Virus record (IMG/VR): IMGVR_UViG_3300018411_000028
Span: 1 to 59,737 of that record
DNA: 59,737 bases
Reading direction: 5' to 3' (one strand)
Origin: a virus
In this document: positions 1 through 58,989 of the stretch, piece after piece
How the letters are laid out: each line of letters starts with the position of its first letter
Numbering within the stretch: the first letter of the stretch is position 1
Translations under genes and position numbers: made by a program
The notes under the pieces: generated by a model
Database searches by the model: none
Seen by the model: only the letters and a program-made list of their open reading frames with translations
Told to the model about the DNA's origin: nothing

Positions 1-123
1 GTGGTATAAATGTTCAAATGCGATTATAGAAAAAAGTGTGAAGGATTCACTAGCGAGTCTATCTACTGTATGAGCTGGACTGAGTGCCAGGGGTGCGGAA
101 TTTGGAAGCTGTTCTCTAGGGGA
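1..123. repeat. Terminal direct repeat, left copy (identical to 59615..59737)
   Basis: Bases 1-123 (gtggtataaatgttcaaatgcg...ctgttctctagggga) recur exactly, in direct orientation, as the last 123 bases of the window. Confidence 0.95.
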
Positions 124-10905: not shown

Positions 10906-11067
10906 TTGGTAAAGCTACAAACAACAGAGAGGGGTACGCATTTAATATCTATCCCTAAGAAACTAGCTAAGGCAATGAAGTGGAAGCCTGATGAGGACTT
11001 TGCTTTATGTCCTTGCGGTGATGGGGTGTTGAGAATAGTTCCTATACGTGGGAAGGGGTTAGTATGA
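10906..11067 (+). CDS. AbrB/SpoVT-like small DNA-binding protein (53 aa)
   Basis: TTG start after GAGGTG. VKLQTTERGTHLISIPKKLAKAMKWKPDEDFAL...GVLRIVP fits the swapped-hairpin AbrB/MazE pattern (G..isIPK...g....). ATGA overlap with the next gene. Confidence 0.55.
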   Translation: MVKLQTTERGTHLISIPKKLAKAMKWKPDEDFALCPCGDGVLRIVPIRGKGLV

Positions 11068-13055
11068 AATTTATGAAAGTAGTATCAATAGCACTTATAC
11101 TTATGCTTCTCTTTGTGAGTGCCGCAAGTGCAGCGCAGGGAGAAACAAAAGTTAAAACTAATGCTAACTTATGTGCAGACAGACTTTTAGAACTGCAAAC
11201 TAAACAATCTGTGCATATAGAAAAGGCTGAGGCAAAAGGCAGTAGTGAAAAAAATCTTTACAAACATGCAATTGTAGATATTAATGAACAGGTCACAATT
11301 TCAGCAAGTCTTGATTCAAGCACTCTTGTATGTGGCAAAAGTGCAGATGGTAATATAAGAATTAAAGACCTTGGGAAAGACCACAAACTCAGAGATATTA
11401 GAATTAAAGCCTCTGACCTTGTGGGACTGCCAGGTGTTGATAAAGGTATTGTTAAAGTAACACACTACAACGATGCCGGACTTCCTGATGCTGTATGGAT
11501 TCAAGAGATAGTTAATAATAACGGCTATGTCTACTTTGAAGCTGTACCGTTCTCAGAAGTCGTTATAGGTGGCTTTGTTGGCGATTACACAAAGACCGGG
11601 ACTTTAGACTATCAGACTTCAACAGCTTTTAGTCTTGGAACTACCTTTGATGCAAGCGCAGTAAATGCAATAGAAGCAACAGTAACACCAACATACACGG
11701 AAACAAGTCCTTATGATATTCCTACAGATGGGCTTGTTGGATTCTGGAAATTTGACGAAAACACAGGTACGAATGTTTCTGATAGTTCAGGAAATGGAAA
11801 TCACGGGACTGCAAGCGGGATGACTTGGACTGACGGAAAATACAATTCAGCCGGAAGTTTTGATGGAGTTAATGATTATGTTGATACGCCTATATGTGTG
11901 AATGGTTCGTTTACAATTGACTTAACCACTAATATATACATAGATAATAGAGACATCTGTAGTTGTTGGGGGGTTGTTGATAGCCGAGCTTTTGCAATAT
12001 ATCAACAGGGGGGTTATACTAAAATATTAGTATCACCGAATGGTTCAACCGAAGGTAGCTCATACACAATGGCTGATCAGTATGTATTAAATGAATTAGT
12101 AAATATAGGTATAGTTTATGACCACACCGCACAAACAATCTCCTTTTATAAAAATGGAGTATTGTCAAATACTGTGAATACTATAAAAATGTTTGAAAAT
12201 ACAACATCACAATTAAGAATTGGTCCATCATATATTAAGGGACCTCATAGTGGAACAGTTGATAATTTTATCTTATATAACCGTACACTTTCGGAATCTG
12301 AAATTACAGCAATCTATTACGACTCACTCGTAGACCTGAAACTCAAAACAAACAGCAATACCGGATATTCGGACGAAATAGACGAAAGCGGAACAGTTTC
12401 AATTCCATACGATTCAGAAGACAGTGATATAACAAGCCTTAGTGCTTACGTACCTGAAAACGTAACAATCGGCGGGGTAACAGTTCGGGATTATACAAAC
12501 ACTGTAACACCATTTGGAATAAGTGCAACAGTAGGGTATACAGAAGACACAACTTTAATAACCGAAACACTGACAGACGAAAGTTATCAGCTTGTAATAA
12601 GGCATACCCCAGGCAATGACTACACAGCAGCTTCAACAGTGGTTTATACCTCTGACACAAACGCTATACTTAGTAGCTCATACCTGACCTATGACCTTAC
12701 AAGCACTAATCCAAATGCAGTATTAGCGTTTAATCCAGCAACCTTAAAGTGGGCCATTACCACAGGAGCAATAACAGCAGACACAGCTTATACATACAAC
12801 ATTATAGCAACCACAGAAGGAACTGAAGTTCTTGACGTTGAAAACGGTGTTGGTGATTCATTCGTTGAAACATTCCCACAGGAAGGAAACGAAAACACAG
12901 CTATAGGAACTAGCTTTACTGTGGAATCAAACAGTGAAATATTAGGTATGATGAACGGTGCTGACATATGGAACACAACCTCAGCAGTAGTGCTGGCAGT
13001 CATAGTTATAATGGGTGCTTGTTTACTGTTAACATATGTAAGGAAGGTGGATTAA
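11064..13055 (+). CDS. Large secreted, membrane-anchored LamG/concanavalin-like lectin-domain protein (candidate receptor-binding/adhesin protein)
   Basis: Signal peptide MKFMKVVSIALILMLLFVSAASAAQG. LamG signature GLVGFWKFDENTGTNVSDSSGNGNHGT...FDGVNDYV. Thr/Ser-rich C-terminal half with many N-x-S/T sites. C-terminal TM AVVLAVIVIMGACLLL. Confidence 0.85.
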   Translation: MKFMKVVSIALILMLLFVSAASAAQGETKVKTNANLCADRLLELQTKQSVHIEKAEAKGSSEKNLYKHAIVDINEQVTISASLDSSTLVCGKSADGNIRIKDLGKDHKLRDIRIKASDLVGLPGVDKGIVKVTHYNDAGLPDAVWIQEIVNNNGYVYFEAVPFSEVVIGGFVGDYTKTGTLDYQTSTAFSLGTTFDASAVNAIEATVTPTYTETSPYDIPTDGLVGFWKFDENTGTNVSDSSGNGNHGTASGMTWTDGKYNSAGSFDGVNDYVDTPICVNGSFTIDLTTNIYIDNRDICSCWGVVDSRAFAIYQQGGYTKILVSPNGSTEGSSYTMADQYVLNELVNIGIVYDHTAQTISFYKNGVLSNTVNTIKMFENTTSQLRIGPSYIKGPHSGTVDNFILYNRTLSESEITAIYYDSLVDLKLKTNSNTGYSDEIDESGTVSIPYDSEDSDITSLSAYVPENVTIGGVTVRDYTNTVTPFGISATVGYTEDTTLITETLTDESYQLVIRHTPGNDYTAASTVVYTSDTNAILSSSYLTYDLTSTNPNAVLAFNPATLKWAITTGAITADTAYTYNIIATTEGTEVLDVENGVGDSFVETFPQEGNENTAIGTSFTVESNSEILGMMNGADIWNTTSAVVLAVIVIMGACLLLTYVRKVD

Positions 13056-14600: not shown

Positions 14601-14801
14601 ATGCTATTAGCAGGCGTTAAGCCTGGTAAATGTATTCTAGCAGGTGTTGACCCTTCAGATATGAGAAAAATACTTAGATTTCGTGCTGTGCAGGGGCAGA
14701 ACCTTACTTTATCAGAATTTGCAGCTAAAACTGGTCTGTCACGGCACACATGCAATAATCTGAAAAAGATTTACATTGCTCATAAGGGGAGAAAAGTATG
14801 A
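14601..14801 (+). CDS. Small HTH-like protein preceding the second adhesin gene
   Basis: LTLSEFAAKTGLSRHTCNNL is helix-turn-helix-like. ATGA overlap with 14798. The frame is open upstream to 14523 with AGTGATAAA-CTG at 14544, so a longer form is possible. Confidence 0.5.
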   Translation: MLLAGVKPGKCILAGVDPSDMRKILRFRAVQGQNLTLSEFAAKTGLSRHTCNNLKKIYIAHKGRKV

Positions 14802-17335
14802 GGTTTAGAAATATTATAATAGTTGGTGTACTGCTATTACTCCTCTGTGGTATTGCAGGTGCGGCAACTGAAGAAAAGTATACTAAGTCTAAAAATGGAG
14901 TACTGTTTCAGAGATCAGTTAATACTGACTCAGTAGATATTGCAAAGGAGAATCACAAGATAACTATTAGCTCAAGTGAGCACATGGAGACAAAAATAAA
15001 AATTAAAAGATCTGATATAGAAGCTTTAGATGGATTTACTGGGACTCTGCAGGTTTCACACTTTACAGATAGTGGTGTGAATGACTGGAATAGAGTAATA
15101 ACTCCTGTAGATAATAACGGATATTACAATATAGAAGTAGAGTTTTCGGCTGTTACATTGACAGTAACTACAAGTCCTATAGTTAATTGGAACTTTGAAG
15201 CTTTCACTGGTGATGCACCTGACTCTTGGACTGTTATAACTGCTGGAGGGGCAAAGACAGTATATCTAGCTGATGCTTATGTGTCCTCTTACGCTTATAA
15301 AATAACTGGCGGTTCAGGGAATAAAGGAAACATTCAACAGGCAATTACACTTGCAGCTAACACAGAGTATACATTCGGAGCTTGGATTAAAACCAGTGGG
15401 GTAACGTCTGGAAACTCACCAATATATATTACTGATGGCACAGGCTCAACAATTGCAGCACTTTGGACATATGGAATAGGTACAACTGATTATACATGGT
15501 ACGAAACAACAGTTGATACCACAGGGCATTCAGGTCCGTATAAAATAGCTCTATATGCATATGACTTTCCCTCTACGAGTTACATTTGTTATGATGGTAT
15601 ATTGGTTGGAAAATCAGTTGATATAGGTGGAGCAGAAGTTATAGATACGGTGAACTGCACTGCAGCTATTTCATTTACCTACACACCTGATCAAGATTAT
15701 ACCTCGGATGTTGTAACAGTTGACTTTACAACTATTAGTCTAGGAGATTACAGACATGGTACTAAAGGCGCAGTAGTAGCTCAGGTAGGAGCAGCACCTG
15801 TAACAGCTTACCTGGGAGGGTCAAAGCTCTACTTAGACGGTGTTACTATGACAAGCGGTGTACCGTATAACTTTTACGCAATTGTGCCGTTTAATCTACC
15901 TCCAACATTAATAAGCCCTACAAACGGGTCTACAATAACAAGAGAGTTTCCTCCACTATATGCAAGTCAGGTGTTTACGTGGAGTGATACTAGCACAACT
16001 TGCCAGATACAAATAGCAGAGGACTCCGCCTTTAGCAATGTTGTTTACTCTACTGAAACAACAGCAGCTACAGCCACAGCGTCTTTGGCAGCAGGCACGT
16101 ATTATTGGAGAGTAAGAAGTTATGATTCTATACTTGCACAATACGGTGCTTACCCTGCAAGTTACAGTGTTGTAGTTGTAACAACCACAGGAAGTATAGT
16201 AGGTACAGGTATCGCAGGGTGTGTTTATGAATCTAAAGGATTGGGGAATTATCAGGTAGTTTCAGGTGCACTTGCAACTGTGTATAATGACACGTACTCA
16301 ACCACAAAAACAACAGGTTCAGAAGGTTATTATCAAGTGCTGGGTTTATCAGAGGGTACATATTACGTGAGTATAAAGAAAACAGGTTATGACGCTTCAG
16401 ACATCACTCCTGTTAATGTTACTGCTGGCGAAGTGGTAATACAGAATATAGCCATACAACAGGCACAAAGTTATTTCGCACCCACTGACTGCAGCATAAA
16501 AGTAAAGCAGCATTGGTATAGCTTCTCAGGTGTTTCTGGAGTTGCTTACTCATACTATCAGAATGGTGACACTGCTACACAAGGGACTGGCACAACAGAT
16601 AGTACTGGTAGGTTCACTATGTCAAATGTTAACATAGGGACGAAGTATAGAATAGTGCTTACTACAGACGATGGGACGCAAACAGATTATATAACTCCTT
16701 CAAGTTCGGAGCTATCGTTTATAATTGTGCTGGATTTAACAGAAGCACCTTTGTTACCTGACTCGCAGTTTTATGATGTGGTTAATGTATCAGTAAGTAA
16801 GTTAGTGCTTAACTCAACTGCTGCAAGTGTTACAGTGAATTGGGAAGGCAATAGCTCAAGCATGACGGAGGTTTATTACAGGATAGGGCAAACAGCTAAT
16901 AACGGCACTTTTGTTATGCTGGATGATTATACAGAAACACCCACAGGAACTTTGGGCAACCACTCATTTGTAGTTAGTGACTACTTAGGGCAGTCTTACA
17001 AGGTCATAGTAGAATTTACAGAAGATAGCTTTGGGGAGGTAGAGAAAACTTACACAGTAACATTTGCAGGGTCCACAGTTCCATTTATCGGAGGAAAAGC
17101 ACTGTCTTACTTCGGTGTTTTCCTTGTATTTGTTGTTGCCATGATGTTTGGAAAAGCAGAACATGCAGTAGGCGGCTTAATGGTTTGTGGATTCTCATGG
17201 TTCTTGTGGTACTTAGATGTATTCACAGGCTTTGGGGCAGCAACTAATACCACAATGGCAGCAGGGCTAATAATTGGGACAGTGTTTGCTTTGTTAGCAG
17301 TAATTAACGAAGCTAGAAAGGGGGCGAATATCTAA
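14798..17335 (+). CDS. Very large secreted multi-domain adhesin-like protein with C-terminal TM helices
   Basis: Signal peptide present. The N-terminal domain is paralogous to 11064..13055: IKIKRSDIEALDGFTGTLQVSHFTDSG...NNGYYNIEVEFSAV versus IRIKASDLVGLPGVDKGIVKVTHYNDAG...NNGYVYFEAVPFSEV. It also has a CBM4/9-like NWNFEAF...W segment, an Fn3-like SPTNGS...YYWRVRS segment, a carboxypeptidase-regulatory-like GYYQVLGLSEGTYYVSIKKTGY segment and three C-terminal TM helices. Confidence 0.85.
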   Translation: MRFRNIIIVGVLLLLLCGIAGAATEEKYTKSKNGVLFQRSVNTDSVDIAKENHKITISSSEHMETKIKIKRSDIEALDGFTGTLQVSHFTDSGVNDWNRVITPVDNNGYYNIEVEFSAVTLTVTTSPIVNWNFEAFTGDAPDSWTVITAGGAKTVYLADAYVSSYAYKITGGSGNKGNIQQAITLAANTEYTFGAWIKTSGVTSGNSPIYITDGTGSTIAALWTYGIGTTDYTWYETTVDTTGHSGPYKIALYAYDFPSTSYICYDGILVGKSVDIGGAEVIDTVNCTAAISFTYTPDQDYTSDVVTVDFTTISLGDYRHGTKGAVVAQVGAAPVTAYLGGSKLYLDGVTMTSGVPYNFYAIVPFNLPPTLISPTNGSTITREFPPLYASQVFTWSDTSTTCQIQIAEDSAFSNVVYSTETTAATATASLAAGTYYWRVRSYDSILAQYGAYPASYSVVVVTTTGSIVGTGIAGCVYESKGLGNYQVVSGALATVYNDTYSTTKTTGSEGYYQVLGLSEGTYYVSIKKTGYDASDITPVNVTAGEVVIQNIAIQQAQSYFAPTDCSIKVKQHWYSFSGVSGVAYSYYQNGDTATQGTGTTDSTGRFTMSNVNIGTKYRIVLTTDDGTQTDYITPSSSELSFIIVLDLTEAPLLPDSQFYDVVNVSVSKLVLNSTAASVTVNWEGNSSSMTEVYYRIGQTANNGTFVMLDDYTETPTGTLGNHSFVVSDYLGQSYKVIVEFTEDSFGEVEKTYTVTFAGSTVPFIGGKALSYFGVFLVFVVAMMFGKAEHAVGGLMVCGFSWFLWYLDVFTGFGAATNTTMAAGLIIGTVFALLAVINEARKGANI

Positions 17336-17715
17336 TGTGGGCTAAAGAAATAGCCTTCTTTCTCCTTGCTTTTGTAGTAGCAGGAGGGATAATAAACGGA
17401 GCTGGAATATTTGATACTGTAACTATTCCAGAGGCAACAATGCCAGGGGCAGATTTAGCAGATGGAATAGTAGAGGCAGGGTCTTCAGGGTCAGAATCAG
17501 ACATAGCAAGTGCATTTGACGGGTGGGCAATGATAGCTAGTATGTACTCCACAGTAAAAACTGTATTTTCTGTGCTGATACTGCCAGGTCCTTACTTATT
17601 CAGTATTGGAATACCTGCAGCTTTCGCATATGGGATTCAAACCATGGTAACTTTAGCAGAAGTTTGGGGATTAATGCAACTAATAACGAATCGTAGCACA
17701 GGGGGAATGGATTAA
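17335..17715 (+). CDS. Multi-pass membrane protein (126 aa)
   Basis: TAATG overlap with the upstream gene. Several hydrophobic helices. Confidence 0.7.
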   Translation: MWAKEIAFFLLAFVVAGGIINGAGIFDTVTIPEATMPGADLADGIVEAGSSGSESDIASAFDGWAMIASMYSTVKTVFSVLILPGPYLFSIGIPAAFAYGIQTMVTLAEVWGLMQLITNRSTGGMD

Positions 17716-18365
17716 TGAGAGCTAGATTTATACTTATCTTACTCTCAATTTTTATGCTGTGTGGGGTGACTGCAGCAACTCCTGTAATTTCCTTTGTAGG
17801 AGATAGTAACCAAGTTATCACTGTTGGGGCTACTCATGCGTTTAATTTCACTTCAGACGTAGCTATAAACTCAGCAGATTATTATTTAGATGGTGTCAAA
17901 ACAACAGTAGCAGGACAAAGCAAAGAGTACACGTTCACGGATGATAGCACTTATCATAATGTTTCTGTGATTGCCTCAGATGGTAATCCTTCAAACATGC
18001 TTACGTGGACTGTAACAATTCCAAGAGAAAAAGCAACTGTTTCAATTGCAACAATAGGAGATGATGAAGAGTATAACAGTCTAATGGATAACTTTACTGA
18101 TATGAATTGGGAAGGATTAACACAGTCTGCAACAACACCTTTTACTAATGCAATGGGTAGAATGTTTTATGTAGTGCTGTTTATCTTGCCATTTGTCTTA
18201 ATGTGGAAACAACAGGAAACAATGACAATACCTGCAATAGTCGCAATGTTCTTTGGTACTTTGTTAATAGGGTTTGTACCTGAACAGTATAAAACGTTGA
18301 TTACATTTGCGGTTATTCTATCATTTGCAGCGAATTTCTATCTGATGAGTAGGAATAGGCTTTAA
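17715..18365 (+). CDS. Secreted/membrane-anchored protein with beta-rich ectodomain (216 aa)
   Basis: TAATG overlap. Signal peptide ILILLSIFMLCGVTAA, N-x-S/T sites, two C-terminal TM helices. Confidence 0.7.
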   Translation: MRARFILILLSIFMLCGVTAATPVISFVGDSNQVITVGATHAFNFTSDVAINSADYYLDGVKTTVAGQSKEYTFTDDSTYHNVSVIASDGNPSNMLTWTVTIPREKATVSIATIGDDEEYNSLMDNFTDMNWEGLTQSATTPFTNAMGRMFYVVLFILPFVLMWKQQETMTIPAIVAMFFGTLLIGFVPEQYKTLITFAVILSFAANFYLMSRNRL

Positions 18366-27912: not shown

Positions 27913-28449
27913 ATGGGCGATGGTCAACCGGTTTTAATAGGTGTTTTCATACTTTGTTTCATGGTGTATGGGTATGCCGAAGAAAATTTCATTCTTGGAG
28001 ATGAATACGAGAAAGGAATAACAACCTACGGGGCAACTTTCGTAGGAGCAGATGGACACGAAATCAAACTTCTCGAATGTAAGAACGCGACCGATGCTTC
28101 ATACAATGAAGTCATCGCGTTTATAAAAGCCGACAAGACGGATAAGAGGGCTTATACACAAAACTATCAATGTGGTGACTTTGCGGAAACAGTGCAACAC
28201 AACGCTGAAATCCATGGGATAAACTGCGGAATAGTTATAATCGAGGGAATAAATCACGCATGCAACGTATTCAATACAACTGACAGGGGGTTGTTATTCG
28301 TTGACTGTACAAACGGCAATGGCGGTGGATCATGGGATACCACAGTAAACATCAAAGAAGGAAAACAATACATACCAAAACCTGTTAAATCGAATGGGTA
28401 CACATACGAATCAATGGGAATTGTAACGAGTTATGAAATATATTGGTGA
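27913..28449 (+). CDS. Secreted/TM-anchored protein with transglutaminase-like Cys-His-Asp pattern
   Basis: N-terminal hydrophobic segment. YQCGDFAETVQHNAEIHGINCGIVII...INHACNVFNTTDRGLLFVD resembles the C...H...D core of transglutaminase-like cysteine peptidases. Assessed by eye only. Confidence 0.45.
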   Translation: MGDGQPVLIGVFILCFMVYGYAEENFILGDEYEKGITTYGATFVGADGHEIKLLECKNATDASYNEVIAFIKADKTDKRAYTQNYQCGDFAETVQHNAEIHGINCGIVIIEGINHACNVFNTTDRGLLFVDCTNGNGGGSWDTTVNIKEGKQYIPKPVKSNGYTYESMGIVTSYEIYW

Positions 28450-30926: not shown

Positions 30927-31193
30927 ATGGACAAAGACGCACTACTAACAAAATTACAGGATATTTACAAGATAATTGATGCTTTAATGATTGCAGCATT
31001 TGCATATTTTACGTCTATATTCCTACTTGTGCTTATGTGGCAGAACTTTGACCCACTTGCACCAGCTTTAGAAGCTGACCGTGTGACAGCATTTGCAAGA
31101 TCATTTGAGTATTACACATATATTGTGGGGTGGATTACTGTTACAAGAGTACTTACAGCATTTAAAATATTTTTCTTTCCAAAGGTGGTATAA
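30927..31193 (+). CDS. Membrane protein (88 aa)
   Basis: GGTGGTATA-ATG start. Two hydrophobic helices. Confidence 0.65.
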   Translation: MDKDALLTKLQDIYKIIDALMIAAFAYFTSIFLLVLMWQNFDPLAPALEADRVTAFARSFEYYTYIVGWITVTRVLTAFKIFFFPKVV

Positions 31194-32958: not shown

Positions 32959-34020
32959 TTAATCCTGGCTCTTTTCTTTTTTAGTCCTCCATACAGGCGC
33001 AGGGTGTGTAAGGTAAGTCCAGTACAACTTAATTGCTTGTTTATCTCTGCTTTCTGCAGGTGTATTGTTAAAGTACCACTCAAGAGCCCTTGTATTAATT
33101 TCTGCCATACCTTTACCTGTGTTCCCATTATGAGGTATAGACACATGTAACTCTTTAGGAATGTGTATTACAATATCATTATCCTTATACTTTGGATCGT
33201 TTGTATATCTTAGGTGGTGTTTCACAGCTCCAGAGAAATTCTTATTTATAGGCTTAAATCCTAGTCCTCTTCTTTTAAATGCGTGCTTTGCGTCTACTGC
33301 TTGTACGCTTTCTTTCTGTGCTGGATCTTTCCTTCTGTTCTTTCTCTGTTCTAGTATGGTATTATGTACTGCAGGGTTATGGTACCTTGCAAGACTCCGG
33401 TTTATCTTACTCTCTTTGTATGCCAAGTCACTACTGTACTTCTTCCTATCTCTGCATCTAGTGCGTTCTTTAACGTCAGCTTTACCATGATAATCTTTAG
33501 CCCATGCTTTAGCGTGTAGCTTAAATTTATCGGTTGACTTATAAACCTTCAAAGCCTCTGTGTGTGATTCTTTGTACTCCTTGTTATACTGCTTCTGTTT
33601 CTCTTTATTAATAGGGTCATTACTATACTTTTTATTATACTGTCTAATCTTTTCTCTATTCTCAGGCTTGCTATAGTATTCTTTATTATGTACTTTAGCA
33701 TACTCCCTAGATCTCTTTATTATTTCAGGTCTGCTGTTATACTCTTTTATCTTCTTCTTTCCTTCTTCGCTGTCTCTTCTCTTCTGCTCTCGTTCTCGTT
33801 TCTTTCTTCTTTCATCTTCCCCTTGTGTCCTTTTTACTTCATATGCTGCTCTGCAAACTTTACAGGCAGCTTGAAATTTATCTCCTGCAGGAGAATACTC
33901 AGACACAGGCTTAACAGCCTTACACATACTACAGCGTTTATGCAAAACTCCATTAATAGTCTCATATACCTTGATCAAATCTATCACCTTATAGTCTACA
34001 TAATAGTACATCTGTTTCAA
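32959..34020 (-). CDS. Zn-ribbon / basic-repeat protein with C-terminal HNH-like His-rich motif (paralogue of 38226..39023)
   Basis: CSMCKAVKPVSEYSPAGDKFQAACKVCRAAY, then Lys/Glu/Tyr/Asn-rich repeats (KEYNSRPE, KEYYSKPEN, KKYSNDPINKEK, KEYKESH). C-terminus KRRGLGFKPINKNFSGAVKHHL...IHIPKELHVSIPHN. Confidence 0.7.
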   Translation of the reverse strand: MKQMYYYVDYKVIDLIKVYETINGVLHKRCSMCKAVKPVSEYSPAGDKFQAACKVCRAAYEVKRTQGEDERRKKREREQKRRDSEEGKKKIKEYNSRPEIIKRSREYAKVHNKEYYSKPENREKIRQYNKKYSNDPINKEKQKQYNKEYKESHTEALKVYKSTDKFKLHAKAWAKDYHGKADVKERTRCRDRKKYSSDLAYKESKINRSLARYHNPAVHNTILEQRKNRRKDPAQKESVQAVDAKHAFKRRGLGFKPINKNFSGAVKHHLRYTNDPKYKDNDIVIHIPKELHVSIPHNGNTGKGMAEINTRALEWYFNNTPAESRDKQAIKLYWTYLTHPAPVWRTKKEKSQD

Positions 34021-34137: not shown

Positions 34138-35121
34138 TTAGTCCCTTCCTGCAGACACTTTCCGCGCGTATCCATAGTCTAAAGAGTTCTCTGCACATGC
34201 CGCTTTTAGTGTACCGTACACGCCTGCTTCAACATCTCGTATAAGCTCTAAACACCTTGCTTTTTTAGTCACTTTTTTAGGTACATCATCAGGAACTTTC
34301 TTACCTGCTGATTTATCCACTTTTTCTTTAGGTGTCATACCATCTAAAATAGCTTCAACATTACTCAGTTGAACTCTACGGAGCTGGATTTTCCTCACAG
34401 CCTCATAAATTTCTTCCAGTTCATTAGGTGCCTTGCCAAAGATAATTTTATTGTACACGGCACCTTTTGTTTTAATGTAAGGATAAATGTTTTTTCTTGA
34501 GGACGTGTTATACATTTTCTGAACTTCTGTTAGTCTACCAACTGCAACAGACTTACCTATCCTCTCCAGTTGCTTAGAGAATATAGGTTTATCCATAACT
34601 ATCTTAAACCTAAGAATATTTCTACCTTTAATATCAATCCAGTCAGAGTCAGGCACAGACATAAATATAATGTTGTTGTCTGTTCTCATTGTCTGGAGTA
34701 CATCATTCATTGCTTCATTAGGCTTACTCTGCCATTTACGATTATTATATGCGACTCCAAAGTCATCGAAGACAAAGACACCATAGTGACTCTCAGGTCT
34801 TCTCATAACATTAATACACCGCATTACCTGGTCAGGTGCGATAGTGGCTATGTGCCCAATATTGAAATAGTGTGAAGGAACACCACCAAAATGATTTGCA
34901 AGCTGGATAGCACACCAGCACGCAGTATTCATAGTAGCATTGCTTTTCCCCATCCCTGGCTTGCCTTCAAAAAGGCATATTACGTTTTGATTCTTGGAGT
35001 GGATAATAATATCTGTGAAAAGCTGTGCTAAAGACATTTCAGATAGGTCTTCCTCAACTATTTTGAAGAAATCTTCCACTTCCATATTATCTTCTGTTGA
35101 TTCAGTAGTATTTTCGACCAT
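34138..35121 (-). CDS. P-loop NTPase (morphogenesis/packaging-type ATPase candidate)
   Basis: Walker A FEGKPGMGKSN, Walker B GVFVFDDFG. Last gene of the operon headed by the MCP-like gene. Confidence 0.8.
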   Translation of the reverse strand: MVENTTESTEDNMEVEDFFKIVEEDLSEMSLAQLFTDIIIHSKNQNVICLFEGKPGMGKSNATMNTACWCAIQLANHFGGVPSHYFNIGHIATIAPDQVMRCINVMRRPESHYGVFVFDDFGVAYNNRKWQSKPNEAMNDVLQTMRTDNNIIFMSVPDSDWIDIKGRNILRFKIVMDKPIFSKQLERIGKSVAVGRLTEVQKMYNTSSRKNIYPYIKTKGAVYNKIIFGKAPNELEEIYEAVRKIQLRRVQLSNVEAILDGMTPKEKVDKSAGKKVPDDVPKKVTKKARCLELIRDVEAGVYGTLKAACAENSLDYGYARKVSAGRD

Positions 35122-35122
35122 T

Positions 35123-36055: not shown

Positions 36056-36058
36056 AGT

Positions 36059-36369: not shown

Positions 36370-36370
<1 letters not shown>
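36059..36370 (-). CDS. Protein with C-terminal TM anchor (103 aa)
   Basis: C-terminal IIAFCMVVGVTVLGIYIL. Start overlaps the previous stop by 1 nt. Confidence 0.65.
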
Positions 36371-37062
<692 letters not shown>

Positions 37063-37662
37063 TTATTTTCCTCCGAATGACCAAAAACTTTTCTTTTTGG
37101 CTTTAGTTTCTACTTCATAAGGTCTTGTAACTTCCTGCACCTGGATATTGCGAGTCCCAAGTTCAGCATTAATAAGACGTTCTCTCTTTTCCCCTACTGA
37201 CCTAGAGACATAGGCTTCAAATACTGACATTATATTTTTCTCTAGTGCTGAAACATTCATACTCAACATATCTTCCTGAGTCGCGGCACATCTTGTTAAT
37301 TCAAGCTTCAACTGTGCAAATATTAATACATACTTCAAAGGGTCATTCTGCCCAAATATACCAAGTTTTCTAACGCTGTTATTTGCTAGTACCTGCTCAC
37401 GTGCAAAGAGTGAGTAAACACAGGAAACAAGTTCACGCTTATACCTTTCTGTGACTGCTGCCGTCTTAATATGCCCCATTATATCCGCAAGGTAAGGACT
37501 CGCGCCCATCATTGTGGCGTACTTTAAACTGTCATCTGAGAATGAAGGACGCTCTACATTACTTGCGCCAAATCCAAATGAGATTGCGCCTAAGTCATCA
37601 TCCTCTGGATACTGGTCTTCTTCTTCGTGTTCTTCTTCGTTTAGATAGCTGTCGCTGTTCAT
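37063..37662 (-). CDS. Hypothetical protein with acidic N-terminus (199 aa)
   Basis: NEEEHEEEDQYPEDDD N-terminus. Abuts 37062. Confidence 0.7.
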   Translation of the reverse strand: MNSDSYLNEEEHEEEDQYPEDDDLGAISFGFGASNVERPSFSDDSLKYATMMGASPYLADIMGHIKTAAVTERYKRELVSCVYSLFAREQVLANNSVRKLGIFGQNDPLKYVLIFAQLKLELTRCAATQEDMLSMNVSALEKNIMSVFEAYVSRSVGEKRERLINAELGTRNIQVQEVTRPYEVETKAKKKSFWSFGGK

Positions 37663-37745
37663 ATTTCCTCCTATTAAAACACCACCTAAGTGAATGAAAA
37701 AAAATTATTTAAAAGAGAGAAGAGGGGTTAAGAAACTCCCTCTGT

Positions 37746-37994
37746 TTATTCCTTCAGACCTTTAAGGGCTCTGATAGCAATTGCAACTGCAGCGATTACG
37801 ATAACTGCACCGAGGATTGCAACACCAGATGTCCAGATGTCAGCACCAGTGGTTGCGCTGCCAAAATCACCACTTGCGTTAATTGGCAGAGAGGTAGACA
37901 TACTTTCGCCAAGCCCCGGCCCCAAGTACAGAATGACGACAACCGTGAGAAGGCCCATACAAAAAGCTGAAATCTCTTCTATTACAGTAACCAT
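37746..37994 (-). CDS. Small two-helix hydrophobic protein: major capsid protein candidate of spindle/pleomorphic-type viruses
   Basis: 82 aa. Hydrophobic helix ISAFCMGLLTVVVILYLGPGLG, loop with an N-x-S site, second helix GVAILGAVIVIAAVAIAI, basic tail. First gene behind a strong AGCGCGTATATA promoter. Confidence 0.55.
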   Translation of the reverse strand: MVTVIEEISAFCMGLLTVVVILYLGPGLGESMSTSLPINASGDFGSATTGADIWTSGVAILGAVIVIAAVAIAIRALKGLKE

Positions 37995-38082
37995 AGTTTA
38001 AAACTCCCATATATTTGTGTATATTATTTTACTGTTTTGTTTGTTTATTTGTTTATTTGTTTAGGTAATAATACCCTACTAC

Positions 38083-38108
38083 TATATACGCGCTCTTTCT
38101 ATTTAAAA
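38083..38108 (-). promoter_or_regulatory. BRE/TATA-like promoter, AGCGCGTATATA family, copy 3 (minus strand)
   Basis: Reverse complement reads ttttaaatagaaagAGCGCGTATATAg, 89 nt upstream of the start at 37994. Confidence 0.55.
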
Positions 38109-38225
38109 CTTTCTATACAGTGGTTAACAGGCTTAAAATTTGTATTTAGGCAGTGAAATACTGTCGAAAAGCTTATAGTCTTTTAGAACGTATATACTTT
38201 ATACAATAATTTGGTGGTGCATTTG

Positions 38226-39023
38226 ATGGACGAATATAAAATGTGTAGAGTGTGTAAGCAACTACTTCCCTTGTGTAGCTTTAACACTAGAAAAGGTGCT
38301 AAAGATGGACACAGAAACGACTGTAAGGTATGCCAAGCAGTCAGGAATAAACATTGGGGAGAAAATAATAAAGAGTACATAGCTAAGTATAATAAAAAAT
38401 ACTGGGAGGAAAACAAAGAAATTTTAGCAGATAAACATAAAGAATATTGGGAGGAAAACAAAGAGGCTATGCATGCTAAAAACAAGCAATGGAGAGAAGA
38501 AAACAAAGAACACACTCAGGCGTATAATAAAGAAAAATATGCAAATAATAAAGAAGCAAATAGAGAGCATAACAAAGCATATTGGGCAGCCAATAAAGAA
38601 AGATTAAAAGAACAGTGTAAGAAGTGGAGAAAAGAACACCCAGGTTACTTAACAGAAAAACAAAAGGAATGGAGAGAAAACAACAAAGAGCACTACATAG
38701 AATACCACAAGAAATACAGAGAAGAGAATGCAGAAACCATTAAAGAACGTCATAATGCATGGAAACAAACACCAGGTTATAAACTCGCAAACATCAGACA
38801 TAAACAAAAACGCAGAGAACTAGGATTCAACCCCATAAATGAACGCTTTGAGGGTTCAGAGTTCCACCACTTGCACGTAGACATGGAAGGCAACACAGAT
38901 AACGCAATTGGCTTATTTATCCCTGCAGAGCTTCACAAGTCTATTGCACATAACCATTCAACATGGGTAGGTATGGAAGAGATTAACGCCGTAGCAATTG
39001 ACTGGTTCTTTTCTGAAGAATAA
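38226..39023 (+). CDS. Zn-ribbon / ~15-aa NKE-repeat protein with C-terminal HNH-like motif (paralogue of 32959..34020)
   Basis: CRVCKQLLPLCSFNTRKGAKDGHRNDCKVCQAV. About nine repeats of the type NKEYIAKYNKKYWEE. C-terminus KRRELGFNPINERFEGSEFHHLH...LFIPAELHKSIAHN. ATG 38226 follows TTGGTGGTG. Confidence 0.7.
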   Translation: MDEYKMCRVCKQLLPLCSFNTRKGAKDGHRNDCKVCQAVRNKHWGENNKEYIAKYNKKYWEENKEILADKHKEYWEENKEAMHAKNKQWREENKEHTQAYNKEKYANNKEANREHNKAYWAANKERLKEQCKKWRKEHPGYLTEKQKEWRENNKEHYIEYHKKYREENAETIKERHNAWKQTPGYKLANIRHKQKRRELGFNPINERFEGSEFHHLHVDMEGNTDNAIGLFIPAELHKSIAHNHSTWVGMEEINAVAIDWFFSEE

Positions 39024-39068
39024 CTTTTCAAAACAGAAATAAAAAAAAATTTGAGAGTCGCGGCACTC

Positions 39069-39326
39069 TCAGTATCTTCTCTTGTTTTTTAATGCTGAAA
39101 TTCCGAAAATTAACATCATAATGCCTAGTATTGCAGCTATGGGGGTAAACAAGTTAGATGTTGCGCTCTGTATTGCTGTGTTACTTTCGTATGACTGCTC
39201 ATATGCTGTATCTGTTACATTTATATTCTCATCATTCGCGCTTAACACACCATACATGTAGCTTACACCTACCATTAGCACTGCCATAAGTGCCAGCATT
39301 GGGACTATCTTACTCATTTGACTCAT
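39069..39326 (-). CDS. Second small two-helix hydrophobic (MCP-like) protein (85 aa)
   Basis: ATG 39326 follows AGGTGGTAAGA. Helix IVPMLALMAVLMVGVSYMYGV, polar loop with N-x-T, helix IAAILGIMMLIFGISAL, basic tail KNKRRY. Confidence 0.65.
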   Translation of the reverse strand: MSQMSKIVPMLALMAVLMVGVSYMYGVLSANDENINVTDTAYEQSYESNTAIQSATSNLFTPIAAILGIMMLIFGISALKNKRRY

Positions 39327-39576
39327 TCTTACCACCTTTCTTTATTTTGGCTGCTGCGTCTTTTAGATCCTTCTCAACATCTAGCAGAAACACAGGATTT
39401 TCTGTTATAACTTTTATATACGTGCGCTTGCAGTAGCATATACAGTAGATAATCGCTGCAAGATAAGTGAAAATTTCCACTGCTGGCGAAAGCACATCAG
39501 TTACGGCAACTGTGACTATGGACCCAAGCGAAATTAAAAAACCCCAATCAAGAGGGTTTGCAAACTGCTGTTTCAT
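39310..39576 (-). CDS. Membrane protein (88 aa)
   Basis: GGAGG RBS. Two hydrophobic helices. Confidence 0.6.
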   Translation of the reverse strand: MKQQFANPLDWGFLISLGSIVTVAVTDVLSPAVEIFTYLAAIIYCICYCKRTYIKVITENPVFLLDVEKDLKDAAAKIKKGGKNESNE

Positions 39577-39987
39577 TTATATTTCCTCCACTACTTTACT
39601 TTCTTTTATAAACTGGTATATCTGTAACAAAATGGTTATACTGATTACTATCCCTATCAACTGGAATACCTGTGATACCGCACTATTCCGTATTACCTCT
39701 GTTGATACTATAACTTCATTGGTTGAGCTTAAAAATCTTTCTGTGGTTGTTAGAGTCCCGTCAAGAAACAGGTTAGAAATTTTAAAGCTGATTATTGCAG
39801 GTATTAATGTTGTTCCTACTGATAATGCCGTAACTCCTCCAGATCCCCATGTGAACAAACCAATAACAAAGAACACTATTCCCATTGCAAGGAGCATCCA
39901 AACAGTGTTTATGTCAGTTGTGGTGAGTTCTGCAGCAGCAGGAGAAATTAAGCAAAGCAGTCCTAATACTGTTAGTTCTGATTTCAT
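39577..39987 (-). CDS. Multi-pass membrane protein with signal-like N-terminus (136 aa)
   Basis: AGGTGATAAA-ATG start. The leader ctatagtaggtgataa is shared with the 10347 gene. Confidence 0.7.
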   Translation of the reverse strand: MKSELTVLGLLCLISPAAAELTTTDINTVWMLLAMGIVFFVIGLFTWGSGGVTALSVGTTLIPAIISFKISNLFLDGTLTTTERFLSSTNEVIVSTEVIRNSAVSQVFQLIGIVISITILLQIYQFIKESKVVEEI

Positions 39988-40039
39988 TTTATCACCTACT
40001 ATAGTAATAGGTGCTAAAAGTATTTAAAATGTACGTTAG

Positions 40040-40065
40040 TTTTATAACGGTTGAGCGCGTATATA
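40040..40065 (+). promoter_or_regulatory. BRE/TATA-like promoter, AGCGCGTATATA family, copy 4
   Basis: ttttataacggttgAGCGCGTATATAa, 46 nt upstream of ATG 40111. Confidence 0.55.
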
Positions 40066-43263: not shown

Positions 43264-44874
43264 TTACTCTACTACTGCCTCAATAAACCAACTTCTGAAA
43301 TACTCTCTGTGTTTCCTATAAAACACTATCCATTCTGGTTCTGTAATTATCGTATTTGTGGTTTTCTTATCATTCCGGTTAACTCGCCCATACTGTTGCA
43401 TAACTTCATTTGCAGCTTCTACATACTCCCATTCTTTACCCTGATACTTCCACTTTGCTCTGGTCAGATGATCTGTGGGATTCTGTCTCTTAACATATGT
43501 AATTACATTATTTAGTATGTCATTCTCAGGTAAATCAATACCTCTCCCCATGTTAACAGCTATTAAGATCTGTGTTTTATTTCTTGCTCTTTTAAACCTA
43601 TCTATTGCGTCACCTCTTAGGACTGCGCCTTCAATACTTGCCATAGTGCTTTCTCTCGATTGCACTATGGGTTTTACCTTGCCGTGACTTACTCTGTATA
43701 TTTCAGACCCTAGCCTTTCTGCAATTGAGTAAGAGGGCACATGCACAATAGTCTTGCCTGGCAGAAGAATGTCTGAAGGTTCGCTTAACATTTTAGCCAG
43801 CTTTGGTATTGTCTCATCTCTGTTTTTCATGGTTAAGGACCCTACAGGAATAAACTTAAAGGGTCTTACTTCCTTTGGAAACGGGCTTTTAACCTCTATA
43901 AACTCCCACCCTTCAAGCTTTTGAGGGGTTGCACTCATAAGGACAACTATTCTATTTTCTGTGTCAAGTGCTTCGTCTAAGAACCTTTCAATTGAAACAG
44001 GTTCAAAAGGTGTTGTTTTACCGTTATCATCTGACACTATGTACTTATTTCCTTCTTTTATGTCGGTAAGCAACCTCTCTATTCTATCAATCTTATCGGT
44101 AAGTCCTCTTCTATGTTTGATATTTTCTAATGTTTTATCTAAGCTTTCAAGCTCATAAGTGTAAGCTTCTTTCTTATCCTGCAGGCACATTTCATAATCT
44201 GCAAAATCGTTAAAATGCCAGTAATCATCTATTATTAATTTCCTGAACATCCTAATAAATGGTTCCATGTAATCACACTCATCCACAATAACAACTTCAG
44301 GAGAGTTTGTTACACCCATTTGCAATAAGGTAAAATTACTGTTACCTATCATATGTCTTTTGTAAGCCCCAAACGCTTGTTTATAACTGCAATACTTACA
44401 TGGGCAAGCATCTGCGTCAGGTCTACTGCAATTATCACATTCGCGTTCATCAAACATTTTTAATTTATTCTTTGAGTCCATTGCCTCTTTATAACTCATT
44501 GTGCAAATGCCTGCAGCACAGAAACCATTGTCACAGGAAACCTTTTCCCTTTTTACTGCTCTCATTGCAGCACATTCATAATGTTTCTTGCCAGTGAGGG
44601 ATAAAAGAGGAAATTTACTGTCTGCCTCAAACTCTTTGTACTGGTCCACAAGAGTATTGAGAGGTGATGTGATAAGAGTAGGCAACCCCTTAAACGCTGC
44701 CAGGTTAGCCATGGCTTTTGCAATACCAGACTTTCCGGCACCAGTGGGAGCACAAATAATAAATTTACGTTTTCCCTCAAACAGTTTTTGCTCAAACCAC
44801 TCTAAAACCTCAATCTGTTGAGGTCTTGGAGTGTTTATTTTTGCTGTCTGTGGGAAGTAGTTTAAAATTGTCAT
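43264..44874 (-). CDS. XPD/Rad3/DinG-like SF2 helicase with Fe-S cluster-type cysteines
   Basis: Walker A CAPTGAGKSG, Walker B VIVDECD, motif VI QQYGRVNR. A Cys cluster lies between Walker A and B (CDNGFCAAGIC ... CDNC...CPCKYC). Confidence 0.85.
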   Translation of the reverse strand: MTILNYFPQTAKINTPRPQQIEVLEWFEQKLFEGKRKFIICAPTGAGKSGIAKAMANLAAFKGLPTLITSPLNTLVDQYKEFEADSKFPLLSLTGKKHYECAAMRAVKREKVSCDNGFCAAGICTMSYKEAMDSKNKLKMFDERECDNCSRPDADACPCKYCSYKQAFGAYKRHMIGNSNFTLLQMGVTNSPEVVIVDECDYMEPFIRMFRKLIIDDYWHFNDFADYEMCLQDKKEAYTYELESLDKTLENIKHRRGLTDKIDRIERLLTDIKEGNKYIVSDDNGKTTPFEPVSIERFLDEALDTENRIVVLMSATPQKLEGWEFIEVKSPFPKEVRPFKFIPVGSLTMKNRDETIPKLAKMLSEPSDILLPGKTIVHVPSYSIAERLGSEIYRVSHGKVKPIVQSRESTMASIEGAVLRGDAIDRFKRARNKTQILIAVNMGRGIDLPENDILNNVITYVKRQNPTDHLTRAKWKYQGKEWEYVEAANEVMQQYGRVNRNDKKTTNTIITEPEWIVFYRKHREYFRSWFIEAVVE

Positions 44875-45092
44875 TATCGCATCTCTGAGAACATTTCCTC
44901 ATACTTTTTGTATTCTTCTTCCATACGCTTTAAAAACTTTTTCTTTGAGGTTAGGCTTGACTCTAAAATATTAAGTTTAGCTGTATCATCATCTGAATGA
45001 AAAAGCAAGTTATTTAGAGATGTTATATCTTTCTGAAGACCTGTAATCTCTTTTTTAATTGCTATTATATCTCTCTGTCTAACGAATCCCAT
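44874..45092 (-). CDS. Small coiled-coil protein (72 aa)
   Basis: GGTGGTATAA-ATG start. Its stop overlaps the helicase start by 1 nt. Confidence 0.6.
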   Translation of the reverse strand: MGFVRQRDIIAIKKEITGLQKDITSLNNLLFHSDDDTAKLNILESSLTSKKKFLKRMEEEYKKYEEMFSEMR

Positions 45093-45160
45093 TTATACCA
45101 CCTTATAATACTTATTACATTATCAGTAACGGAAATTTAAATTTAGAGGTGAGTAAACCT

Positions 45161-46078
45161 CTAACACACAACTGTTTGAATAAGTAATGTCACAAAATAC
45201 CCTAGTATAGTACAAGAGCACAGTGCAGGCAGAGCCGGAAGTCCACCTTCGTGTTTTGTCATCCAATATACTAAAGCAACTACACCAAGCATTGTTCCAG
45301 TTATTGTCCCAACTGCAAGATATAAGCCACCTGACACATATGCCCCAACCACTAGCAATGTTGGAAATATTGCATCCCCAAAACCCATAAATCCACATCC
45401 ATTATGATCTTCACTCGTTGGATTATCAAATACATAGGAGTATTTCAAACTATGTGGAATAATAAACATTAACGGTAATTTTAAATCAAGAGCACACTCA
45501 GCCAGTTTCAGCATATGCTTAGACAAGAATACAGCAACCAAGTCATATATTGCAAATGCAAGCATTAAAACTATTATAACATTTATTGAAAGAATCCCTC
45601 CTATAATCGCCACTACAGATGCACAGATGCCAATCCCAACAATATTGACAATATACCACTCTGGATATACCCACAGACATACCATTAATACGCCACAAAA
45701 TGCTATTATATAATCTGCTATAACTGGATCGGATAAATTAAACATCAGCAGTATAGATTCAGTTATTAATACAGTGTTACTGAAAATTGATAAAAATATA
45801 AACCCTTTTACTATTACCCATAGTTTCAGTTTAATTATCAATAATATTATAAATGTCTCTACAATTACAATAATCAACATGTGTGCAACATTACCCATAC
45901 TGTTAGAGTCAACTGGACTGGTATCTACTATAAATTCTACTAATGAATTGGATTCATCACCTGGTCCAAATGTAGATAATACACCAATTGAAAGAAACTG
46001 AACAGATAAAATTATAAGCGCAGTAGGTAAACAGTTTTTTATAAAACTAACATAGTTGTATTTTTCTAATTCTGTCAT
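45161..46078 (-). CDS. Presenilin / signal-peptide-peptidase-like (GxGD, family A22) intramembrane aspartyl protease
   Basis: GGTGGTATAA-ATG start. Polytopic membrane protein with all three signature motifs in order: LAFAIYDLVAVFLSKHMLKLAE (YD), GFMGFGDAIFPTLLV (GxGD), GGLPALPAL (PAL). Confidence 0.8.
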   Translation of the reverse strand: MTELEKYNYVSFIKNCLPTALIILSVQFLSIGVLSTFGPGDESNSLVEFIVDTSPVDSNSMGNVAHMLIIVIVETFIILLIIKLKLWVIVKGFIFLSIFSNTVLITESILLMFNLSDPVIADYIIAFCGVLMVCLWVYPEWYIVNIVGIGICASVVAIIGGILSINVIIVLMLAFAIYDLVAVFLSKHMLKLAECALDLKLPLMFIIPHSLKYSYVFDNPTSEDHNGCGFMGFGDAIFPTLLVVGAYVSGGLYLAVGTITGTMLGVVALVYWMTKHEGGLPALPALCSCTILGYFVTLLIQTVVC

Positions 46079-46096
46079 TTATACCACCACTAAAAT

Positions 46097-46342
46097 TTAA
46101 TAATCACAAGAAACAAAATCAAAGTCTTCTTCTTCATCTGCAACTTTCAGCACACAGGGCTCTGGAAGTTCTCTGTACTGCTGGACCAGCCAGGCTACGG
46201 GAATTAATGTCACCAGTGCAAGAATTACAGGTAGGTTGCACAGGTATAATACTGTTTCAACTACAATACCTGCAATCGTAATGCCTATGATTACATTAGG
46301 AATATTTTCTCTATTCAGTTTCCCTTTTACTGTAAAATTCAT
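46097..46342 (-). CDS. Membrane protein (81 aa)
   Basis: GGTGAT RBS. Two hydrophobic helices and an acidic tail. Confidence 0.6.
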   Translation of the reverse strand: MNFTVKGKLNRENIPNVIIGITIAGIVVETVLYLCNLPVILALVTLIPVAWLVQQYRELPEPCVLKVADEEEDFDFVSCDY

Positions 46343-58602: not shown

Positions 58603-58989
58603 ATGACCAGATCCAGAAAAGTAGAACAGGCAATAAAAAATGATTTTGTTTTTAAGGCGATTGGGGAAGACTACACAGACAGAGATCCTGCAGAGTATAC
58701 TAATATTAATGCAGTGGGATTCTGCCCACACATCGACAACAGCAGGCTTCAGAAAATTATTCTGTCAAAAAATGGTGACGGAATTATCCACAGAAGGTGT
58801 GTTGCCTCAAATGGCACAGACAGATTTTACCATTACGTACAGCTCCAGGATTTTAAGCCCGTGCAATTCTGCAAACTACAGAGAGATCCTGAGGCAGACA
58901 TAGAAAAATGCGAGAGATTTTTCACAAAATGCCCTGCGTACATAGCAGAAATAGTAGAAGAAAAGAGAGCTAAAAAGAGGGTGGTTTAA
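58603..58989 (+). CDS. Hypothetical protein (128 aa)
   Basis: GAGGTGAGATA-ATG start. Confidence 0.65.
   Translation: MTRSRKVEQAIKNDFVFKAIGEDYTDRDPAEYTNINAVGFCPHIDNSRLQKIILSKNGDGIIHRRCVASNGTDRFYHYVQLQDFKPVQFCKLQRDPEADIEKCERFFTKCPAYIAEIVEEKRAKKRVV

Follow-up and report, generated by a model that had tools for sequence, protein, structure and literature searches.

An archaeal presenilin homologue encoded in an accessory cassette of a circular, virus-like 59.6-kb element

The archaeal presenilin/signal peptide peptidase homologues (PSHs; MEROPS family A22) are intramembrane aspartyl proteases that serve as a structural model for presenilin and gamma-secretase. Here we describe a PSH gene in the IMG/VR virus record IMGVR_UViG_3300018411_000028, whose whole stretch of 59,737 nt (hereafter the window, to which all positions refer) was analysed. 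Our reading, to which we give a probability of about 0.6, is that a stand-alone and catalytically competent PSH is carried as an accessory cassette, and as a predicted auxiliary protease, by a circular element of 59.6 kb, in all likelihood a non-tailed virus that infects a methanogen. The evidence that carries this reading comes from the family membership and fold of the protein, from the exact boundaries of the slot in which its gene lies, and from the gene content of the element and its relatives.

The protease, its family and its fold

45161..46078, minus strand: PSH-type (A22, PF06550) intramembrane aspartyl protease gene, ATG start, 305 aa

A preliminary description of this stretch, made from the letters alone, had placed the open reading frame (ORF) here and named three motif strings in it, all of which are present: LAFAIYDLVAVFLSKHMLKLAE holds Y178-D179, GFMGFGDAIFPTLLV holds G232-x-G234-D235, and GGLPALPAL holds P284-A285-L286 (the PAL motif), the catalytic aspartate pair being D179 (in YD) and D235 (in GFGD). 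The protein is a bona fide archaeal PSH, as that description had proposed. It scores 134.3 bits (E=7.8e-39) against Pfam PF06550 (signal peptide peptidase, SPP), whose gathering cutoff is 23.9, and 170 bits against the NCBIfam equivalog NF041679 'presenilin family intramembrane aspartyl protease PSH', whose cutoff is 125, and in a phmmer search against PDB it matched only the PSH of Methanoculleus marisnigri (4hyc/4hyd/4hyg/4y6k; E=1.3e-24). The profile search that had been suggested as a check thus puts a presenilin-type profile above its cutoffs, and the family returned is a protease family rather than one of non-protease membrane proteins. The eukaryotic Presenilin profile PF01080 reaches 17.1 bits, under its threshold of 34.3, and matches residues 231-300 alone; no match to PF04258 (Peptidase_A22B) was reported by Pfam at E<=10, while some PSH homologues match that profile weakly; and no A24 peptidase (FlaK/PibD, preflagellin/prepilin peptidase) appeared in Pfam or NCBIfam at E<=10 or among the Foldseek matches given below. 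In alignments of 13, 62 and 11 homologues, residues Y178, D179, K187-H188-M189, G232, G234, D235, P281, L283, P284 and L286 are invariant, and P284-A285-L286 aligns with the family's invariant L-P-x-L. The extension KHM..LAE after YD, which had been called typical of archaeal homologues, is therefore a real family feature in the form KHM..LA.

Modelling with AlphaFold2 from the alignment of 62 sequences gave nine transmembrane (TM) helices, with a mean predicted local distance difference test score (pLDDT) of 86.3 and a predicted template-modelling score (pTM) of 0.86. D179 lies within helix 165-186 (TM6), D235 opens helix 233-275 (TM7/8), which is preceded by a beta-strand at 228-232, and PAL opens the last helix, 282-304. 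The motif order and hydrophobic context noted from the sequence are thus borne out, and the two aspartates sit in the adjacent TM6 and TM7 of a nine-TM presenilin fold. Comparison of the model with archaeal PSH structures, also proposed earlier, gave these as the top Foldseek matches in PDB (4y6k/4hyc/4hyg, E=3e-8, TM-score 0.77); the first 24 matches are all PSH, SPPL2a or presenilin-1, the last in substrate complexes at TM-scores of about 0.7 (up to 0.71), and the next match has E>0.6. When the sequence is read against the model helices, each of its approximately 10 Lys/Arg residues maps to the N-terminus or to one of the loops TM2-3, TM6-7 and TM8-9, the alternate (outer) loops having none, and this distribution points to an N-in orientation like that of presenilin and PSH. 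In this family, the N-in orientation pairs with type-I (N-out/C-in) substrates.

The protein can be placed among the known systems as follows. PSH/MCMJR1 of M. marisnigri JR1 (4HYC, 4HYD, 4HYG, 4Y6K) belongs to the same profile family and agrees with the window PSH in sequence and fold, including the nine TM helices, YD in TM6, GxGD in TM7, PAL before TM9 and KHM-x-LA after YD; like MCMJR1, the window PSH is a single chain, with no cofactor genes nearby. Unlike the cellular PSHs, to which it is about 30-40% identical, it has a shorter TM6-TM7 loop (about 45 aa), LSKHM in place of KTKHM and a duplicated PAL (LPALPAL), and its gene is a dispensable cassette on a circular virus-like element rather than a chromosomal gene. 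Presenilin-1/2 (the gamma-secretase catalytic subunit, PF01080) has the same fold and active-site architecture (TM-score 0.68-0.71 with 6idf_B, 8oqz_B and 8x52_B), and the N-in orientation, predicted for the window PSH and implying type-I substrates, is common to both; however, the window PSH is without the large cytosolic loop, the endoproteolysis site and the partners nicastrin, APH-1 and PEN-2. SPP and the SPP-like proteins (PF04258; SPPL2a 9K92) likewise have the GxGD aspartyl intramembrane fold (Foldseek E=3e-7). The SPPs adopt an inverted membrane orientation and act on type-II substrates, whereas the charge distribution of the window PSH fits the presenilin orientation. Finally, FlaK/PibD (A24) are archaeal GxGD membrane aspartyl proteases that process the N-terminal hydrophobic segments of small structural proteins. 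In function they are analogous to the proposed processing of major capsid proteins (MCPs) by the PSH, but they differ from the window PSH in TM number and fold.

The cassette slot and its carrier

IMG/VR holds three relatives of the element, all classed as viral: two close ones from Southern Ontario landfill leachate (L006 and L007) and a distant one (UViG_3300029822_000863, 42.9 kb). Comparison with the close relatives delimits a slot around the PSH gene.

46079..46090, minus strand: upstream cassette boundary, the Shine-Dalgarno/start signal GTGGTGGTATAA directly 5' of the PSH ATG; L006 and L007 cease to be homologous right after the ATG
45093..45102, minus strand: downstream cassette boundary, the second GGTGGTATAA, start signal of the 72-aa gene, where homology with L006 and L007 restarts (repeat families D6 and D15)
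45103..45160, minus strand: cassette-specific 3' spacer of 58 nt, read from the sequence as a hairpin and then an A/T-rich stretch
45145-45162, minus strand: 6-bp hairpin AGAGGT-N6-ACCTCT over the PSH stop codon, followed by AAATTTAAATTT (read from the sequence)

Both L006 and L007 are collinear with the window on the two sides of the slot, with nucleotide identities of about 77-92% (about 87% between the genomes), and a tblastn search of the two gave no PSH. The homology includes the upstream GTGGTGGTATAAATG, ends after the ATG and restarts at the next GGTGGTATAAATG, that of the 72-aa gene. The slot, whose two junctions lie at about 9480-9496 and 9775-9790 in L006 and at about 9252-9268 and 9806-9820 in L007, contains the PSH gene and the 58-nt spacer in the window, about 300 nt with a 71-aa ORF in L006, and a pair of small ORFs with TM segments (110 and 68 aa) in L007. 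The PSH is also absent from the distant relative, all 42,909 bp of which were reconstructed and in which the gene for ThyA abuts the helicase gene. Since the gene is missing from all three relatives and the slot is bounded exactly by two copies of the start signal, it is an accessory cassette gene and not a core gene. The preliminary description had taken the use of the core start signal as a sign of a resident viral gene rather than a recent insert. The signal is indeed there, with GTGGTGGTATAA immediately 5' of the PSH ATG and GGTGGTATAA occurring 18 times in the window, but it is the cassette boundary itself, so its use is no proof of residency, and the unrelated small ORFs in the slot of the close relatives, together with the absence from the distant one, refute it. 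The start motif GTGGTGGTATAAATG may act as microhomology for cassette exchange, and the hairpin at the PSH stop codon, which is part of the cassette, may be a 3' element of the transcript. At the same time, the gene is not a fresh capture from a cell, because no cellular PSH is more than 40% identical to the protein, whose catalytic and structural motifs are nevertheless all intact. The lower GC content of the gene (33.6% vs 37.7%) might have pointed to a foreign source; this was set aside, as membrane proteins rich in Leu, Ile and Phe are expected to be AT-rich.

The genes that flank the slot are kept in the close relatives:

46097..46342, minus strand: upstream neighbour, membrane protein of 81 aa with an acidic tail, kept in L006 and L007 (93 aa)
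44874..45092, minus strand: downstream neighbour, coiled-coil protein of 72 aa, N- and C-termini conserved in L006 and L007
43264..44874, minus strand: XPD/DinG-like helicase, the synteny anchor, 94-95% identical in L006 and L007 and 52% in the distant relative

As to the carrier, the following features bear on its nature:

1..123 and 59615-59737: exact terminal direct repeat of 123 nt, an assembly overlap
34138..35121, minus strand: DnaA-like AAA+ ATPase (phrog_5484, E=1e-5; matched in the lemon-shaped virus LSV-48N)
37746..37994, minus strand: protein of 82 aa with two hydrophobic segments, 46% identical in the distant relative; candidate coat protein or substrate
39069..39335, minus strand: protein of 88 aa with two hydrophobic segments and a basic C-terminus, 44% identical in the distant relative; candidate coat protein or substrate

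The terminal repeat implies that the window is a complete circular genome of 59,614 bp. The copy of the contig in ENA, a MEGAHIT k141 product, is 59,755 bp long, which fits a 141-nt k-mer overlap, and the contig is present in at least seven other assemblies of >=50 kb as well. The element encodes a DnaG-primase/D5-helicase fusion, a family-A DNA polymerase, an ATP-dependent ligase, an XPD/DinG-like helicase, ParA, ThyA, Tmk and an NrdD with an intein, together with a DNA methylase, a small tyrosine integrase and a single tRNA-Leu. The PSH gene lies within the block of replication and nucleotide-metabolism genes, among those for NrdD, a MazG-like protein, the helicase, ThyA and Tmk, and this position suggests that it is expressed with the early or middle genes.

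The DnaA-like ATPase is the sole hallmark that ties the element to known archaeal non-tailed viruses. By tblastn it matches the 'DnaA-like replication initiation protein' of the Haloferax lemon-shaped virus LSV-48N (E=8e-5); it has homologues in an IMG/VR relative (75% identity) and on the PSH-bearing contig L176 (E=9e-11, phrog_5484), and no match among 72,556 plasmids. It shows no similarity to His1 ORF16, and tblastx of the window against the LSV-48N genome found nothing in common but the ATPase. A provirus scan of genome contigs with the ATPase, meant to find the host, gave no match. The distant relative has the whole block 34138-39987, with the ATPase and the small membrane proteins, as well as the helicase, ThyA and NrdD. 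Methanosarcina spindle-shaped virus 1 (Eurekaviridae, PQ167755) has, in its ICTV description (PMC12451623), a circular genome with two small coat-like genes, and the window element resembles it by description in its complete circular genome, its methanogenic waste environment and its two small coat-like genes. It also encodes proteins with a signal peptide and a C-terminal anchor, like ORF26/27 of His1, and has the DnaA-like ATPase in common with LSV-48N, whereas VP21 and ORF16 of His1 have no significant similarity to its proteins. None of these three viruses has been reported to carry a PSH, which the window element does. We regard the carrier as a probable non-tailed archaeal virus. The earlier term 'virus-encoded' is likely to be right, given the circular genome, the IMG/VR relatives and the lemon-shaped-virus-type ATPase, although the searches for a capsid protein described below identified none.

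Several further observations were made on this genome. The NrdD gene at 47188-49908 carries an intein (Pfam Intein_splicing), and at window 48687-48932 the close relative L006 (3934-4923, 5396-6444) bears a different insert, about 1 kb long, besides a further insert of about 1 kb at window position 48215 or so, which suggests that the intein content is variable. An intergenic motif TTTAAA..N..GCGCGTATATA(GT) occurs in both orientations (9331-9358, 10832-10856, 38080-38117, 40038-40065, 59574-59611), with copies flanking both sides of the small coat-like gene block, and is probably a strong archaeal promoter (TATA-like). The tRNA-Leu (anticodon TAA) lies at 9701-9782 and the short tyrosine integrase at 29414-30016; the tRNA could be tied to integration, or to codon supply in a genome of 38% GC. 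Two paralogous, highly basic proteins (32959-34020 and 38211-39023) carry 15-aa 'KEYWEENKE'-like repeats (45-nt periodicity at 38391-38510) and a C-terminal HNH-like 'HH..H' region, and members of this family are also found on the 94-kb PSH-bearing contig described below (L184, 2835-3479). Lastly, the conserved module protein of ORF 36370..37062, whose N-terminus bears a TM segment, has at its C-terminus a (Pro-Glu)n and poly-Glu tail that is encoded by CTCAGG/TTC repeats (36370-36514).

Homologues and precedents

An exhaustive HMMER scan of 1.84 billion cluster representatives found one homologue, P0019, at 44% identity and nothing else above 39%, the nearest homologues overall being 30-44% identical to the window PSH. 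Among GTDB genomes, in which methanogen hosts generally carry a PSH of their own, the closest cellular proteins (34-40%) are mostly those of Methanosarcinales (Methanomethylovorans, Methanosarcina, Methanolobus and others). The contigs of the nearest sequences, on the other hand, consist almost wholly of short co-directional ORFs without Pfam matches, and are in this sense ORFan-rich and similar to mobile genetic elements (MGEs). The PSHs taken in from such MGE-like contigs are P0019/P0283, P0021, P0020, P0028, P0039, P0041 and P0023. P0019/P0283, on contigs of 16.5 and 94 kb, lies between secreted-type proteins of 1053 aa (PKD/BNR) and 1358 aa, and these contigs, with a window-like GC content of 37%, also encode a 3,513-aa PKD-repeat protein and an MC1 chromatin protein. 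This closest homologue (42-44%) is encoded on the contigs L004, L184 and L185, whose PSH alleles are identical in sequence, so that the ratio of non-synonymous to synonymous substitution (dN/dS) was uninformative. L184 (JGI Ga0395982_0000026; 94,356 bp) has four gene families in common with the window, L004 and L184 encoding homologues of 27913..28449, 58603..58989 and the 32959..34020 family; it may represent a large virus or MGE of archaea that shares its host group with the window element. The contig of P0039 (22.6 kb) and the window belong to one ENA series, the PSH of P0023 (contigs of 19-27 kb) starts over the stop codon of a DUF3821 protein, and contig L009 encodes a homologue of window gene 37063..37662.

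In neighbour-joining (NJ) trees, the PSHs from MGE contigs cluster with the window protein, apart from all 80 genome-derived PSHs, and the pair of the window protein and P0019, recovered in 32/32 bootstrap replicates, is the only robust grouping. In total, at least 8 distinct PSH-bearing elements were found, with GC contents of 37-59% and lengths between a few kb and >=94 kb. The recurrence of PSH on MGE contigs is well supported by context; a single viral PSH clade is a mere possibility. One candidate, L038 (JABXJQ010000053.1; 1014-1922 and 7921-9333), was set aside as an unproven 7.4-kb circular PSH replicon: it contains a 3.4-kb exact direct repeat, 7,411 nt apart, but only these 3.4 kb are duplicated and the flanks differ. 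In the second copy, a 168-aa N-terminal domain precedes the PSH in the same frame, and the resulting ORF of 470 aa is either an assembly artefact or a fusion variant. In addition, TnpB/IS605 OrfB (Cas12f-like) genes were seen in PSH-bearing or related virus-like contigs (L176 14950-16152, L180 10660-11892, L003 5002-6207).

Precedents in viruses are few. No PHROGs family matches the window PSH, tblastn against 50,697 INPHARED records of phages and archaeal viruses, a collection without PQ167755, gave no PSH match, and three pattern scans of IMG/VR (with the window protein, P0019 and the 62-sequence profile), whose sensitivity was limited, found none. PLSDB has one match, on a 987-kb replicon of Natrinema, and BFVD one structural match, the SPP of an environmental Megaviridae (UniProt A0A5J6VK56; E=8e-6). 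The latter is a viral A22 precedent and the only BFVD viral protein with this fold; it differs, however, in being a eukaryote-type SPP of a eukaryotic giant virus, with 18% identity and a TM-score of about 0.5, and the two proteins represent independent acquisitions. A full-text literature search found no paper joining presenilin or signal peptide peptidase with archaeal viruses, and the landfill virome paper in which two of the relatives were deposited does not mention a PSH. The remark in the preliminary description that this family is not standard in viral genomes agrees with all of these searches.

Possible roles of the protease

The element encodes at least six ORFs that pair an N-terminal hydrophobic segment with a C-terminal TM segment (11064..13055, 14798..17335, 17715..18365, 30927..31193, 37746..37994 and 39069..39335), and tail-anchored small proteins as well. 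Two of the larger ones are candidate substrates:

11064..13055, plus strand: secreted protein of 663 aa, type-I in topology, with a signal-like segment at its N-terminus and one TM anchor at its C-terminus
14798..17335, plus strand: adhesin-like protein of 845 aa with CarboxypepD_reg, an N-terminal signal-like segment and C-terminal TM segments

After infection, the PSH would insert in the host cytoplasmic membrane and, like presenilin and PSH, would hydrolyse the TM helix of single-pass membrane proteins of type I with short ectodomains. A viral PSH might in this way supplement intramembrane proteolysis or direct it to other targets at a time when the virus is filling the membrane with anchored proteins of its own, with the outcome that membrane stubs would be cleared or trimmed, or anchored viral proteins released. 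The enzyme would then be auxiliary, and not an indispensable maturation protease; we favour such a role over obligatory maturation because there are relatives without a PSH and because methanogen hosts generally have one of their own.

The main rival to this auxiliary role is a host-directed one (exclusion or counter-defence), in which the PSH would cleave host receptors or S-layer anchors (superinfection exclusion), TM signalling proteins or TM defence effectors. Its presence varies among near-identical genomes, in which the slot holds different small, often membrane, ORFs; variable slot content of this kind is typical of host-range or counter-defence cargo. The gene is also co-located with early-type genes, and the divergence of the protein from cellular PSHs (<=40% identity) may mean an altered specificity. 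However, PADLOC found no defence or anti-defence match for the PSH and its small neighbours, its only match being a DinG-like one for the helicase, and the idea comes from context alone; we consider it unlikely. The preliminary description had put forward a maturation role, and in its obligatory form the PSH would cut the two small coat-like proteins or the TM-anchored adhesins during virion assembly. In both small proteins a short loop (about 30-35 aa) does join a hydrophobic segment at the N-terminus to a C-terminal TM segment with a basic tail, which is the short-ectodomain type-I shape that presenilin-type enzymes prefer, as known from the substrates of gamma-secretase. Moreover, on L004 and L184 the PSH gene adjoins those of the large secreted proteins (PKD/BNR, 1053 aa; 1358 aa), on L180 it adjoins a DUF3821 gene with overlapping stop and start, and on L009 it is inside a block with the homologue of window 37063..37662. 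Yet the distant relative retains both small proteins (44-46%) and the block 34138-39987 without a PSH anywhere in its 42.9 kb, the close relatives have unrelated small ORFs in place of the cassette, the gene lies in the replication and nucleotide-metabolism block and not in the structural-like one, and a host PSH could do the same job. Maturation of the MCP-like proteins is thereby weakened to a possible but disfavoured role, and as an obligatory step it seems to us decidedly unlikely.

It may also be asked whether the element is viral and whether the enzyme is active. The element could be a plasmid or other MGE, or the PSH a recently captured host gene and a neutral passenger: no capsid or packaging gene was identified, ParA, the integrase and the replication genes would fit a plasmid as well, and the PSH is dispensable in the relatives. 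Against this, IMG/VR classes the relatives as viral, the ATPase matches a lemon-shaped virus and none of the plasmids searched, the sole plasmid counterpart of the PSH is on the 987-kb Natrinema replicon, the identity of at most 40% to cellular PSHs with intact motifs argues against recent capture, and 8 contigs, assembled from several samples, show the identical genotype; we thus consider this reading improbable. That the protein is a catalytically dead PSH acting as a scaffold or channel has a very slim chance. Non-proteolytic roles have been proposed for presenilins, but nothing specific favours one here beyond the short TM6-TM7 loop and the change of KTKHM to LSKHM, and both aspartates, the GxGD glycines, PAL and KHM are conserved in a protein that scores above the equivalog cutoff.

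Certain points weigh against our own reading of an auxiliary protease carried by a non-tailed methanogen virus. The evidence for virus status (the circular genome, the IMG/VR relatives and the ATPase) is indirect, and Pfam and PHROGs scans of the window gave no capsid, portal or terminase. The 82- and 88-aa proteins, the candidates for the MCP, have no Pfam or PHROG match, no meaningful tblastn match and no BFVD match; hhalign of the small proteins against His1 VP21 gave a probability of <5%, and the single-sequence AlphaFold2 model had a pLDDT of 68, which is of low confidence. The host is most probably a methanogen, Methanosarcinales-like, the whole basis for this being PSH similarity, environment and GC content. 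In the NJ trees, the 10-member group of MGE proteins was recovered in 11/32 replicates, and long-branch attraction is possible. Furthermore, the PSH gene could be a neutral passenger, and the substrates documented for cellular PSH are heterologous only, e.g. APP-C99 (PMC9282858).

It is in this last respect that the element may be of use. With about a dozen membrane proteins, some of them of the ideal short-ectodomain type-I shape, a 59.6-kb genome offers a very small set of candidate PSH substrates, and may open a route to natural substrates of PSH. No bacterial or archaeal virus has been documented with an A22 protease, so that a known enzyme family is met here in a new kind of carrier, and the exact junctions at GTGGTGGTATAAATG show how accessory genes may be shuffled in such genomes. 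Non-tailed archaeal viruses assemble and exit at the membrane, and the recurrence of PSH on MGE-like contigs suggests that intramembrane proteolysis has been overlooked in the interplay of archaeal viruses and their hosts at this site. We tentatively propose, as a conjecture for which we would claim somewhat less than even odds, that PSHs recur as a so far unrecognised accessory gene across a network of archaeal viruses and MGEs, several of which have the DnaA-like ATPase or other genes in common with the window element. The genes would be exchanged as cassettes between conserved translation-start motifs, and the enzymes would process the membrane-anchored envelope or adhesin proteins of the viruses or the surface proteins of the host. 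If this were true, it would be the first intramembrane-protease system of prokaryotic viruses, and would provide a small and tractable set of natural PSH-substrate pairs.

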